A stretch of 64,000 bases of DNA from an uncultured Verrucomicrobiae bacterium (GCA_963809845.1 CAWELO010000003.1:68709-132708), one strand, 5' to 3'; shown: positions 13,514 to 56,800, counted from the first letter of the stretch. Notes: a model not told the origin generated them from the sequence alone. Numbers and translations: made by a program.

Positions 13514-13600
13514 GGGGGGAGGACGGAGGGCGGAGGACAGAGGACAGAGGACAGAGGGCGGAGGACGGTCGGACGGTCGGACGGTCAGGCGGAGGCAGGG
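13514..13600 (+). repeat. purine-rich GGAGG/ACAGAGG simple repeat, sharing a core with 51341-51391
   Basis: gggggggaggacggagggcggaggacagaggacagaggacagagggcggaggacggtcggacggtcggacggtcaggcggaggc. The core gggcggaggacagaggacagagg recurs at 51351. Confidence 0.8.
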
Positions 13601-15191: not shown

Positions 15192-15276
15192 GCGTCGCTA
15201 CGCGACGCAACGCATAGCGGAGGCCACAGATCCATGGACTGAAGTCCATGGCTACCATCAATTGTCGCTCCGCGAC
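15192..15276 (+). repeat. three-hairpin dispersed intergenic element, copy 1 (type 1)
   Basis: gcgtcgc-tac-gcgacgc ... tccatggactgaagtccatgg-ctaccatc-aatt-gtcgc-tcc-gcgac. The same architecture occurs at 28302-28553 and 49606-49891. Confidence 0.85.
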
Positions 15277-15322
15277 AAGGGCCGTGCAGCCATTCGCGGG
15301 CCCTCATCCTCTCGCACTCTGG

Positions 15323-15462
15323 GGGGGTGTTCGCACGGGCGCGGGTTTGTTCCCACTGGCACGGGTTCATTCGCACAGGCCTGGGTTCATCCGCGCACGC
15401 ACGGATTTGTTCGTACTGGCTCGGGTTTAATGGTACTCGCGCGGGTTCATTCACGGGCCGGC
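15323..15462. repeat. tandem array, 7 units of exactly 20 nt (consensus GGGTTYRTTCGCACNGGCNC)
   Basis: Units start at 15323, 15343, 15363, 15383, 15403, 15423 and 15443. The last unit overlaps the stop codon (15451-15453) of the radical SAM gene. Confidence 0.8.
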
Positions 15463-28301: not shown

Positions 28302-28553
28302 GGCGCTACGCGACGCCGGGCATCGGGGAGGGCGCCGATCCATGGACTAAAGTCCATGGCTACCATCGTTCGTCGCTCCGCGACGAGGGTTGCCCCGCCG
28401 CCGCGTGGTGCCGCCGCGTAGCGGCCCCGCATGTCGCCGCGTGGTGCGGCGCGGTGCGGCGTGGTGCCGCGTAGCGGCATCCGATGGTAGCCGTGGACTT
28501 CGAGTCCACGGATCCCGGTTCCCCCCACGCGGAGATGCGTCGCGTCGCGACGC
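28302..28553. repeat. head-to-head pair of three-hairpin elements (copy 2 forward 28302-28385, copy 3 inverted 28466-28553) with a GC-rich spacer
   Basis: Copy 2 is gatccatggactaaagtccatggctaccatcgttcgtcgctccgcgac. Copy 3, reverse-complemented, is ggcgtcgcgacgcgacgc...atccgtggactcgaagtccacggctaccatcggatgccgctacgcggc. The spacer carries repeated ccgcgtggtgc units. Confidence 0.85.
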
Positions 28554-47771: not shown

Positions 47772-47847
47772 GTGGAGCCAACGGTCAGAATTGAACTGAC
47801 GACCCGCGCTTTACGAAAGCGCTGCTCTACCGACTGAGCTACGTTGG
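47772..47847 (-). tRNA. tRNA-Thr (anticodon CGU), CCA encoded
   Basis: The reverse strand reads GCCAACGTAGCTCAGTCGGTAGAGCAGCGCTTTCGTAAAGCGCGGGTCGTCAGTTCAATTCTGACCGTTGGCTCCA. It folds by hand into a 7/4/5/5-bp cloverleaf with anticodon loop TTCGTAA and T-loop TTCAATT. Confidence 0.93.
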
Positions 47848-48125
47848 CGTCCCGGCGGCACGAACGCACGCGTCTTGGCAGAACGCGGGCTCGCGGCACG
47901 CGGTTATCTATACTCGACGCCCGGCACGGAGGCAAGCGCGGCTCTCACCACGACCCACACAAGATAGCGGCGGTGTTCCGCGAGCGAGGAATGCCCGGCG
48001 TCGGAGGATTTGTGGTCACTTTGGCCCCCGGCCCAAATCCGCTTGCCAGGGCCGGATGGCGCGGAGGGGGCGGAGCGCGAACTGGCGGTGAGCGGATGCC
48101 CTCGAATCATGCCGCCAGGGGGCCA

Positions 48126-49605: not shown

Positions 49606-49891
49606 AGGCGTCGCGACGCGACGCATCCCGTTCCGGTGGCTGAATTCCGTGGACTAAAAGTCCACGGCTACCATCGGACGCCGCTACGCGGCGGAGGTGG
49701 CGGAGGTGGCGGCGGCAGCAGCAGCCCAGCCCGTGTCGCGGAGCGACAAACGATGGTAGCCATGGGCTTCAGTCCATGGATCGGCACGCGCCCCGGGCGG
49801 TCAGGCGTCGCGACGCGACGCATTTCAAGCCGGCGACCGCATTCCGTGGACTAAAAGTCCACGGCTACCATCGGACGCCGCTACGCGGCGG
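49606..49891. repeat. cluster of three three-hairpin elements (copy 4 forward 49606-49694, copy 5 inverted 49735-49822, copy 6 forward 49803-49891) plus GCN triplet tracts
   Basis: Copies 4 and 6 are identical over attccgtggactaaaagtccacggctaccatcggacgccgctacgcggcgg. Copy 5 is the reverse complement of the type-1 form. Copies 5 and 6 share the palindrome gcgtcgcgacgcgacgc. Confidence 0.9.
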
Positions 49892-49963
49892 CAGCGGCGG
49901 CAGCGGCAGCCGCAGCGGCGCAGCAGCGGCAGCGGCGTGTGAGGCTCGAGGGGGCCACCACAA

Positions 49964-50920: not shown

Positions 50921-51340
50921 GCGGCCATCATGGCCAGAGCCGCGCGGGTTGGCAACCGTGGAAGGGACGGGGTCGTGACGCGACGGGCGTCCGATCGGGA
51001 GGCCGAGGAGCCGGAGGACTGGGACAAACCGCCTGGGGGCACAACCGTGACGCGCGAACGAGAAGATCCCCCATGAAAAAGCCAGGGCGGCAACGGTTCG
51101 CAACTTAAAGCCCGCTACCCGTTACCGCCCCGACCAGTCAAAAACCAGCCTCCCGAGGCTGTACCGTTTATTCGACCCCTTTCTACCGCAGTTCCCCTGC
51201 GCGGTCACTGTGCGTTTCGACGCACACCCCCTAATAAGGCTGGGCTTCGGACTCTCTGTGCGTTGCGGGGGGATCGGGGGTTGAGAGGGCTTGGGGACGT
51301 TGGGGGTGGGAGACGCCTTATTAGTTTTGCGCTTCGCGCG

Positions 51341-51391
51341 GAGGGCGGAGGGCGGAGGACAGAGGACAGAGGGCGGAGGGACGGAGGGGGA
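51341..51391 (+). repeat. purine-rich repeat, second copy of the 13514-13600 motif, preceded by a G-run tract (51267-51310)
   Basis: ggagggcggagggcggaggacagaggacagagggcggagggacggaggggg. Confidence 0.8.
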
Positions 51392-52416: not shown

Positions 52417-53384
52417 ATGAAGCTTTTGAAACCCGGACGGAATCCATTGGGCGATTGGGGGAGGAGATTTACCTTAGTCGCAGCCGTGGCCGGGGTGGCT
52501 GGGGCCGGTCCGGGGCAAGCCCTGGCGACCGACACCATCGCTCCCATATCGGTCCAAGCCCAAGCGGCTCCCATTCCGCGCTACTCGCCCGGCATCCGTG
52601 AGATTCTCAAGATGCTGGACGCTAAAGTCGATCCGCAGGTGGTCAGGGCATACATCCAGAACTCGACCACCGCGTATTCCCTGAGCGCCCAGGACATCAT
52701 CGACCTCAAACAGCGGGGCGTTCCCGATGACGTTCTCACGTCGATGATGCAGCATGGCGCGGAGGTGAGGGCTCGGTCCATGCCGGCGGCGCAGCCGTAC
52801 TCAGCGCTGCCGCTCCGCAATATGCTCCGCAGTACGCTCCGGCGGCTCCCGCGCCGGATGCCAACGCCTATGCCACGGCGCCCGGGTATGGCTACGACTA
52901 CGGGGATTATGGCTATCCCGCATACGATTATTCGTATTATTCCGGCTATCCCTACGGCTCGTACTACGGCTACCCGTACAACGGGTGGGGAGTCGGCTAC
53001 GGCTATCCCTGGTACGGGTTCTATTCCCCCTTCTTCTTCGACGCGGATGGGTATCGTCATTTCCGCGGGTATGGCGGCGACCGGTTTGGCCACTATCGCG
53101 GATACGGCGGCAATCGAGGGTTCGGCGGACGGTATGGCGGTGCCTATGGGGGACGCTCCCGCGGCTCAGCCTGGCAGCCGGTCGGCACCTATGCGGGACG
53201 CGGCGGAGGCAGCGCCTTCGGCCCGGTTCGCAGTTACGCGGCCCGCCCCGCAGGCGGATTTGCCGGGCATTCCATGTCGTTTGGCGCTCGCAGCGGAGGG
53301 TTCCGCGGCGGAGGCGGATTCGGCGGGGGTTTTCGCGGGGGAGGCGGATTCGGCGGGCACAGTGGCGGCGGCGGACATCGCTGA
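52417..53384 (+). pseudogene. secreted protein: signal peptide + small two-repeat helical domain (frame 1) joined by a frameshift near 52795-52812 to a roughly 190-aa Tyr/Gly/Arg/Phe-rich low-complexity tail (frame 3)
   Basis: Frame 1 from ATG 52417 gives MKLLKPGRNPLGDWGRRFTLVAAVAGVAGAGPGQALA...IREILKMLDAKVDPQVVRAYIQNS...DIIDLKQRGVPDDVLTSMMQHG. Frame 3 (open 52731-53384, no start codon, so absent from the track) gives ...APQYAPQYAPAAPAPDANAYATAPGYGYDYGDYGYPAYDYSYYSGYPYGSYYGYPYNGWGVGYGYPWYGF...GGFRGGGGFGGGFRGGGGFGGHSGGGGHR*, hand-translated codon by codon. The frameshift may be an assembly indel. Confidence 0.6.
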
Positions 53385-56667: not shown

Positions 56668-56755
56668 TTTCGTGTATTTGGCGTATTTCGTGGTCTGCCG
56701 GTTTTGCGCGTGTTTCGTGGGTTTCGTGGTCCCCGGGTGTTTCATGCCTTTCGTA
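56668..56755 (+). repeat. irregular tandem array of TTTCGTG heptamers
   Basis: TTTCGTG occurs at 56668, 56686, 56713 and 56722. Variants are TTTCATG at 56739 and TTTCGTA at 56749. Confidence 0.75.
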
Positions 56756-56800
56756 GTCTCCCGAGGAGGATGTGCCCGGCGGTTGGGTGCACGACAAAAC

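Follow-up and report, generated by a model that had tools for sequence, protein, structure and literature searches.

What are the blocks of roughly 90 nt, each built of three hairpins, that recur in three gene gaps of a 64,000-nt stretch of DNA from an uncultured Verrucomicrobiae bacterium (GCA_963809845.1 CAWELO010000003.1:68709-132708), three of them clustered at positions 49606-49891? The preliminary description of this stretch, which we call 'the window', offered two answers: a dispersed element like the repetitive extragenic palindromes (REPs) and bacterial interspersed mosaic elements (BIMEs), or a family of small structured RNAs. We find that the blocks are members of a family already catalogued, Acido-Lenti-1 (Rfam RF01687), and that in related sequences members of this family systematically flank a gene for a Y1 transposase. 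The six copies in the window are likely, in our judgment, to be gene-less, non-autonomous copies of the end module of a Y1 (IS200-like) transposase unit, comparable to REPs and to the REP doublets forming hairpins known as REPINs.

A three-hairpin unit and its match to RF01687

A covariance model of the full ~88-nt unit, built from 37 copies and named R1 here, was run unfiltered over the whole window. It recovers exactly six three-hairpin copies, at 75-92 bits, with the places and features first reported for them; every other hit scores 25 bits or less, the weaker ones being antisense echoes of the same six. The unit runs from hairpin A (7 bp, GCGTCGC-NNN-GCGACGC) through a variable spacer of 20-24 nt to hairpin B (9 bp, CC[AG]TGGACT...AGTCCA[TC]GG), then the invariant tag CTACCATC, 3-4 nt of linker and, finally, hairpin C, a stem of 5-6 bp that reads GTCGC-TCC-GCGAC in three copies (type 1) and CGCCGC-TAC-GCGGCG in the other three (type 2; Table 1). 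The compensatory change reported in hairpin B, A to G in one arm and T to C in the other, is confirmed, and much stronger covariation appears in larger sets. When the six copies are aligned, identity is limited to the tag and the hairpins, with values of 80-93% in the latter and of 44% in the spacer and linker. An unbiased repeat search of the window finds the same repeat families, and GGCTACCATC has six exact occurrences, or 11 if up to one mismatch is allowed, against a mean of 3.15 in shuffled sequence and no shuffle in 100 that reaches 11. Folded as single-stranded DNA (ssDNA), five of the six copies form the three hairpins, or nearly so, with z-scores from -1.9 to -6.2. One of these folds, that of the 49606 copy, also pairs the end of the spacer with CTACCATC; this pairing is not kept across copies, and we rejected it as a conserved feature.

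The three loci had been described as lying between convergent stop codons. All six flanking open reading frames (ORFs) carry Pfam domains, and the loci are therefore true convergent-gene gaps; the ORFs called across the copies themselves are artefacts, as suspected.

When the window is scanned against Rfam at curated thresholds, two copies, at 28302 and 15192, score above the RF01687 gathering score of 37; three more fall below it, at 31.0-31.9 bits, and the sixth goes unreported. The 46-position Rfam model corresponds to hairpin B, a linker that starts with GCUA, and hairpin C. Its published architecture—hairpins of 8 bp with a 4-nt loop and of 5 bp with a 3-nt loop, separated by a 12-nt linker starting GCUA—is found in the window, where hairpin B (8-9 bp, 3-4-nt loop), the GCUA linker and hairpin C (5-6 bp, 3-nt loop) align with it. 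The window repeats belong to RF01687, and the family is not new; here the preliminary description, which named a match to a described repeat or RNA family as a refutation, has to give way.

Acido-Lenti-1 was reported by Weinberg et al. (2010; PMC2864571) from Acidobacteria and Lentisphaerae, sometimes near group II introns, with nothing further said about it. They rated the motif a likely RNA on the basis of covariation, and their seed alignment, which includes sequences from Rhodopirellula baltica and Geobacter uraniireducens, contains tandem copies spaced ~74, 110 and 200 nt apart. The copies studied here differ from that entry in three respects. They occur in a probable Verrucomicrobiota genome, rather than in the two phyla listed; the evidence given below points to a transposase-associated DNA repeat, whereas Rfam assigns the type 'Gene; sRNA'; and the Rfam model spans only half of the unit. 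In the published flanks from Lentisphaera and Koribacter a stem like that of hairpin C lies 22-28 nt 5' of hairpin B, and this stem is hairpin A. Hairpin A is thus common to the whole family, and the Rfam model omits it.

Doublets, arrays and a Y1 transposase gene

How are such copies arranged elsewhere? A search of a species-representative genome collection with the 17-mer AGTCCAYGGCTACCATC returned more than 108 stretches among the matches listed, the window itself not being one of them. Most come from a single metagenome-assembled genome (MAG), CAVVMW01, and others from Luteolibacter, Limisphaerales, Akkermansiaceae, Chthoniobacter, other Verrucomicrobiota and a Mariniblastus. For the window, the best named protein homologue belongs to a Limisphaerales MAG. 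Lone matches to the 17-mer in Pseudomonas, Methylophilus, Arthrobacter and others, where the 5' arm of hairpin B is missing, look like chance matches in coding sequence and were set aside. In 100 of the loci R1 finds 221 copies, and their orientation is far from random: among 119 neighboring pairs, 92 are head-to-head (minus then plus, with the A hairpins adjacent) where 25% would be expected at random orientation (p = 8e-33), 19 are tail-to-tail and 8 are direct. In MAG CAVVMW01 there are also arrays (loci L074 and L004) of 211-bp units, in each of which a forward copy precedes an inverted copy of a different subtype. The window cluster at 49606-49891 alternates in the same way, with a type 1 copy on the minus strand between two type 2 copies on the plus strand, as the BIMEs of Escherichia coli do. 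Within it, the doublet of the second and third copies has one palindromic hairpin A common to both. The same MAG has 65 copies that are at least 90% identical, at 53 loci with unrelated flanks, and even their spacers are 85% identical, which indicates recent amplification.

On the minus strand, all six window copies read GATG-GTAG-CC[GA]TGGACT..., with GTAG directly 5' of the 9-bp hairpin B; in the wider family this tag degenerates to NYAG. An unpaired GTAG next to a stem of 6-13 bp is what marks the GTAG-tagged REP superfamily of Di Nocera et al. (2013; PMC3733652), which includes Opitutus terrae, R. baltica and G. uraniireducens, the last two being represented in the RF01687 seed as well. 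There, too, dimers with GTAG facing outward predominate, with 20-100 bp between the partners; some dimers combine two subtypes, and reiterated dimers form clusters; and the repeats lie mostly between co-directional and convergent genes. High copy number and outward dimers are found here likewise, with 221 hits in 100 loci and six copies in the 64 kb of the window. The conserved unit differs: it is ~88 nt long, not a single palindrome of 20-40 bp, and it has two extra GC hairpins, A and C, that are conserved and covary. The comparison with the 24 GTAG families of the superfamily is by description only. We considered hairpins A and C as REPs of the CGTC type and rejected the idea: their stems are 5-7 bp of G and C with 3-nt loops, where the CGTC type has 8-9 bp, A/T pairs and 4-5-nt loops.

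A RAYT/TnpA-REP-like transposase had been suggested as a partner for the element. The window contains none, and related sequences contain a Y1 gene that the element flanks. Searches with class 2 enzymes led nowhere: tblastn of the window and 108 loci with an approximate E. coli RAYT sequence gave nothing under E = 0.4 (the best hit, in L008, runs antisense within a 664-aa gene and is spurious), and a regular-expression search of the copy-bearing loci for the class 2 RAYT motif, H-u-H ... Y-x-x-x-N-P, found no match. Since Quentin et al. (2018; PMC6006769) describe other classes of Y1 enzyme, a search for class 1/3 motifs was run as well, and its sole match was a gene at 1835-2287 of locus L060, from a Verrucomicrobiales MAG. 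The encoded 150-aa protein matches PF01797 (Y1_Tnp) at 90 bits and NF033573 (IS200/IS605 transposase) at 68 bits, and its gene sits inside a head-to-head doublet, with a partial, inverted copy (hairpins B and A) at 1717-1805 and, in forward orientation, a complete one at 2313-2411. Two further details of this locus may be recorded. A TATAAT-like sequence, ATTATAAT, lies between the inverted hairpin A and the start codon, and GAGATGGTATGG, at 2286-2293 directly after the stop codon, resembles the GATGGTAG tag with no hairpin B adjoining it.

The arrangement is no peculiarity of one locus. Homologues of the L060 protein number 1488 at E <= 1e-10; almost all are 150 aa long, and many lie on very short contigs. 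We aligned 30 of these and fetched 80 metagenomic loci (L111-L190), 69 of which have both flanks available. In these 80 loci, 194 kb in all, R1 scores 129 hits. In 38 of the 69 loci the Y1 gene has both an inverted copy upstream of it and a forward one downstream, and in 48 it has at least one of these. Orientation is close to uniform: adjacent upstream copies are minus rather than plus by 32 to 0, and adjacent downstream copies plus rather than minus by 41 to 4. The downstream copy begins 4-6 nt before the end of the stop codon in ~29 loci, and the upstream copy mostly ends 0-40 nt before the ATG. In L132, read by eye, the order is C', TTAG-B', spacer, A', 22 nt, ATG ... TAA-TTCAG-A, spacer, B-CTAA, C. 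In several loci the hairpins are nearly identical to those of the window, and RF01687 itself matches both flanks of the gene at 48-55 bits (L160, L184, L185). A sequence-only nhmmer search finds 18 of the 69 loci doubly flanked, against 38 with the covariance model, because the stems covary. The notion that type 1 marks the left end and type 2 the right was tried and dropped: it holds in L113, L119 and L130, and fails generally (upstream, 19 T-A to 12 C-G; downstream, 17 to 17). The contigs that carry the gene are very often just 0.6-3 kb long and end within or just past the flanking copies, as expected if the repeat breaks metagenome assemblies. On one 2.34-Mb contig (L191, 8069-12493) the flanked gene lies within a znu-type ABC transporter cluster, with the permease gene on one side and the ATPase gene on the other, and is encoded on the opposite strand. 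Three samples have this context in common, which suggests a stable, vertically inherited location.

The Y1 proteins, 150 aa in length, carry the motifs DHVH, WQ (as WQDGYG) and Y-I-x-x-Q-R-E-H-H, and on these motifs the family fits the signature that Table 1 of PMC6006769 gives for TnpAY1 subclass 1.2. That paper describes the subclass as low in copy number, without IS features, mostly cyanobacterial and from Bacteroidetes, and enters it as 'REP: no'; the 'TIRYT' genes of Di Nocera fall in its subclasses 2.1, 2.2 and 2.5, a different set. In the literature we searched, no link of Acido-Lenti-1 to a transposase was found. Two known systems bear comparison. In the REPtron or REPIN-RAYT system (Nunvar 2010; Bertels and Rainey 2011; Ton-Hoang 2012), inverted copies of a repeat stand on either side of a Y1 HUH gene, as they do here in related sequences and not in the window, and gene-less inverted doublets far outnumber the gene; the class 2 TnpAREP enzymes have the RAYT Y-motif YI..NP, however, whereas ours have YIxxQREHH. 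The IS200/IS605 family and its palindrome-associated transposable elements (PATEs) offer the other likeness, in a Y1 transposase of ~150 aa, hairpins near the gene on both sides, derivatives that lack the gene, and the absence of target-site duplication. The IS200/IS605 ends are not inverted repeats, whereas those found here are inverted repeats of one another, ~100 nt long and with three hairpins each; there is no tnpB, and copies with the gene are rare in comparison with those without.

How might such a unit give rise to what is seen in the window? In its complete form, as found in related sequences, it comprises two inverted ends of ~100 nt around the gene for a 150-aa HUH/Y1 transposase, each end with hairpin A next to the gene, then the spacer, hairpin B with its GTAG/CTAC tag, and hairpin C outermost. 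Loss of the gene would leave a head-to-head doublet with the geometry seen at 49735-49891; the 28302-28553 copies are a tail-to-tail pair, and the 15192 copy would be a half-unit. Doublets, half-units and alternating arrays would then build up in intergenic DNA. If the enzyme behaves like the TnpA proteins of IS200/IS605 and the REP-associated transposases, it would bind the hairpins in ssDNA, and cut and rejoin the DNA beside them, with the GTAG next to hairpin B as a candidate guide-like tetranucleotide. Action on ssDNA hairpins would keep the stems paired, through compensatory changes, while the spacers drift. It is from this analogy that we infer mobilization of the copies by this Y1 enzyme, and which hairpin it might recognize; the genome from which the window comes presumably has, or had, a gene of this kind.

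Could the Y1 unit be, instead, an ordinary IS200-type insertion sequence that enters pre-existing doublets, the repeats being its target and owing their spread to something else? Insertion sequences that target REPs do exist (ISPpu9, PMC8450116), the NCBIfam name of the protein is that of an IS200/IS605 family transposase, and the gene sits precisely in the interval from one A hairpin to the other. We nevertheless find the idea improbable. The junction is fixed to the nucleotide among homologues just 40-56% identical, with the element starting 4-6 nt inside the stop codon; the hairpin sequences vary from one Y1 locus to the next and the pairing is kept; the gaps between gene and A hairpins, ~0-40 nt, show no separate IS ends; and the gene on the 2.34-Mb contig stands alone, with no other copy of the repeat within 10 kb on either side. 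To a miniature inverted-repeat transposable element derived from an insertion sequence of the DDE type and marked by terminal inverted repeats and target-site duplications, we attach almost no weight. The doublets, to be sure, are inverted repeats of ~200 nt without coding capacity, but their ends are hairpins rather than simple terminal inverted repeats, no target-site duplication is visible at the 63 isolated doublets, whose flanks are unrelated, and the only gene found inside a doublet is that of the Y1 HUH enzyme.

DNA repeat or RNA

That selection acts on pairing, as the preliminary description proposed, is supported by covariation. In the first set of copies, compensatory changes are seen at four pairs of hairpin A and at four of hairpin C, and hairpin B is fixed by the way the copies were collected. 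In the set collected by way of the Y1 gene, compensatory changes occur at 19 of the 22 pairs, including seven of the nine in hairpin B, 95.4% of cells are paired, and the covariation score is 0.517 against 0.132 in shuffles, all in an alignment fitted to the model. Pairing of this kind might reflect RNA, or it might reflect DNA. Mismatches give some indication of which: they comprise 34 G·T and 47 A·C, with no strand preference, and the published RF01687 seed has, on its annotated strand, 38 A·C but 8 G·U, the opposite of what is expected for an RNA transcribed from that strand. (In that seed, from the supplement to PMC2864571, one A·C of hairpin B, CCUAGC / GCCAGG, recurs in many Lentisphaera copies.) Should the motif ever be functionally transcribed, the opposite strand is the better candidate.

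A small structured RNA gene, each copy transcribed separately and acting in trans as the Rfam type 'Gene; sRNA' implies, is accordingly the half of the original alternative that fares badly, and we regard it as most improbable. The match to Rfam and the strong covariation in three helices, on which Weinberg et al. judged the motif a likely RNA, speak for it, but paired stems are equally expected of ssDNA hairpins. The copies point both ways, and most of them stand in inverted doublets and arrays; dozens in one genome are near-identical, and others form the inverted ends of a transposase gene. No strand carries an excess of G·U. A promoter scan, which covers the sigma-70 type only, finds no sigma-70-like promoter at any copy, and no intrinsic terminator (a hairpin plus a run of T) overlaps any copy. 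The REP/BIME-like half of the alternative stands, with its GTAG tag, head-to-head dimers, alternating arrays of two subtypes, dispersed near-identical copies and, in relatives, a flanked Y1 gene.

A different role for RNA would be in cis: the copies might be kept mainly as structures in 3' untranslated regions (3'-UTRs) that block exonucleases or stop read-through, the transposase explaining no more than their arrival. We think this unlikely, while taking it more seriously than a trans-acting RNA. The three window loci lie directly downstream of the stop codons of convergent genes, the hairpins in this genome are conserved and the spacers have drifted, and stabilization of upstream mRNA by REPs is established (PMC3733652). 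Convergent gaps are not a trait of the family, however, and the window's three are a local coincidence: crude gene calls place the related copies in 48 co-directional, 19 convergent and 9 divergent gaps, against a background of 291, 103 and 104. Divergent gaps, which contain promoters, thus show a trend to depletion (9/76 vs 104/498, p = 0.09) that would suit a 3'-UTR role, but it is not significant and depends on those calls. Further, no hairpin is followed by a U-tract—in the window copies hairpin C is followed by G-rich sequence—wobble pairs have no strand bias, and in the 49.6-kb cluster the antisense copy is the one read first from the minus-strand gene. A 3'-UTR role is, in any case, compatible with descent from a Y1 unit's ends, and no replacement for it.

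Several points weigh against deriving the window copies from the ends of a Y1 unit. No Y1 gene is present in the 64-kb window, or in the ~0.86 Mb of copy-bearing loci apart from L060. Twenty-one of the 69 Y1 loci, belonging to the more divergent homologues, have no flanking copy that the model detects, from limited sensitivity or real absence. The alignment behind the strongest covariation count was fitted to R1. The association of gene and repeat could arise if the Y1 unit targets pre-existing repeats, and copies that are transcribed may act at the RNA level too. The one orthologue comparison yielded no transposition event, empty site or target-site signature; its orthologues are 83-84% identical, with different downstream genes and gaps of only 58 and 73 nt, and the differing synteny makes it uninformative.

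The copies in the window and their surroundings

Table 1. Three-hairpin copies in the 64-kb window, with their parts and adjoining sequences
Feature	Position	Strand	Sequence and scores
Type 1 copy, singleton	15192-15276	+	R1 89.4 bits; RF01687 37.7 bits over 15232-15277; DNA fold z -3.9
Type 1 copy, tail-to-tail with 28466-28553(-)	28302-28385	+	R1 79.9 bits; RF01687 40.4 bits over 28340-28385
Solo palindrome like hairpin C, in GCGTGGTGC-rich tract between the 28.3-kb copies; probably a partial duplication of the neighboring copy's end	28413-28425	-	GCCGC-GTA-GCGGC; R1 8.5 bits at model positions 84-96 (weak)
Type 2 copy, inverted	28466-28553	-	R1 80.6 bits; unreported by Rfam scan at E <= 10; DNA fold z -6.2
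Type 2 copy	49606-49694	+	R1 92.5 bits; RF01687 31.9 bits over 49647-49693; DNA fold z -4.7
49606 copy, hairpin A (lead-in TCAG)	49608-49624	+	GCGTCGC-GAC-GCGACGC
49606 copy, hairpin B	49647-49667	+	CCGTGGACT-AAA-AGTCCACGG
49606 copy, tag	49668-49675	+	CTACCATC
49606 copy, hairpin C	49679-49693	+	CGCCGC-TAC-GCGGCG
Type 1 copy, inverted; left arm of head-to-head doublet	49735-49822	-	R1 74.9 bits; RF01687 31.0 bits over 49734-49779(-); DNA fold z -1.9
49735 copy, hairpin B with one mismatch		-	AGCCCATGG
Type 2 copy, right arm of head-to-head doublet	49803-49891	+	R1 90.5 bits; RF01687 31.9 bits; DNA fold z -3.9
GCGGCA / GCGGCGGCA microsatellite adjoining hairpin C of the 49803 copy; membership of the element uncertain	49885-49937	.	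Tandem Repeats Finder

Tandem repeats with units of 3-20 nt frequently adjoin the hairpin-C end of a copy, in the window (15328-15428, 28390-28465, 49690-49722 and 49885-49937) and elsewhere (L027, L033, L072, L099). After the 15192 singleton there is an array of five 20-nt units; the 28.3-kb pair encloses the tract rich in GCGTGGTGC; and the 49.6-kb cluster is surrounded by GCGGCA and GGAGGTGGC tracts, the latter after 49694. At several loci the flanks of a doublet have mutually reverse-complementary heptamer arrays, and the inverted symmetry thus reaches past the element. Two purine-rich arrays of 7-nt units, GGAGGAC / GCGGAGG with ~7 copies each, lie 38 kb apart at 13514-13568 and 51338-51388 and form one repeat family; neither adjoins a three-hairpin copy. 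Further tandem duplications are found at 53293-53357 (a 30-nt unit, 2.2 times) and 56710-56763 (a 27-nt unit, 2.0 times). The only tRNA in the window, tRNA-Thr (CGT) at 47773-47848(-), is 91% identical to a tRNA in locus L022 of MAG CAVVMW01. Between 32001 and 44000 the G+C content is 0.56-0.585, compared with ~0.63 elsewhere, and this segment may be a foreign island.

For the genome at hand the consequence is simple: three of the window's gene gaps contain ~90-nt copies of a repeat already catalogued, and ORF calls that cross these blocks should be dropped. Masking of the repeat is advisable in RNA-motif and gene-prediction pipelines for these phyla, and its presence would account for the frequent shortness of contigs with the Y1 gene in metagenome assemblies. 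What appears to be new is the link of the Acido-Lenti-1 motif to an IS200-like Y1 subclass that had been reported without repeats, a link that comes from related sequences and not from the window. With it a 16-year-old orphan Rfam family is read afresh, and grouped with REPs, REPINs and BIMEs rather than with regulatory RNAs, and subclass 1.2 gains a candidate DNA substrate. We lean, by a little, toward the view that Acido-Lenti-1 is not an RNA gene at all, but the recognition module of a REP-like system that has escaped recognition, with Y1 subclass 1.2 as its dedicated enzyme. If this is true, the Y1 superfamily has seen REP-type domestication two or more times, and its three-hairpin, ~90-nt version spans Verrucomicrobiota, Planctomycetota, Acidobacteriota and Lentisphaerota, and soil metagenomes besides.

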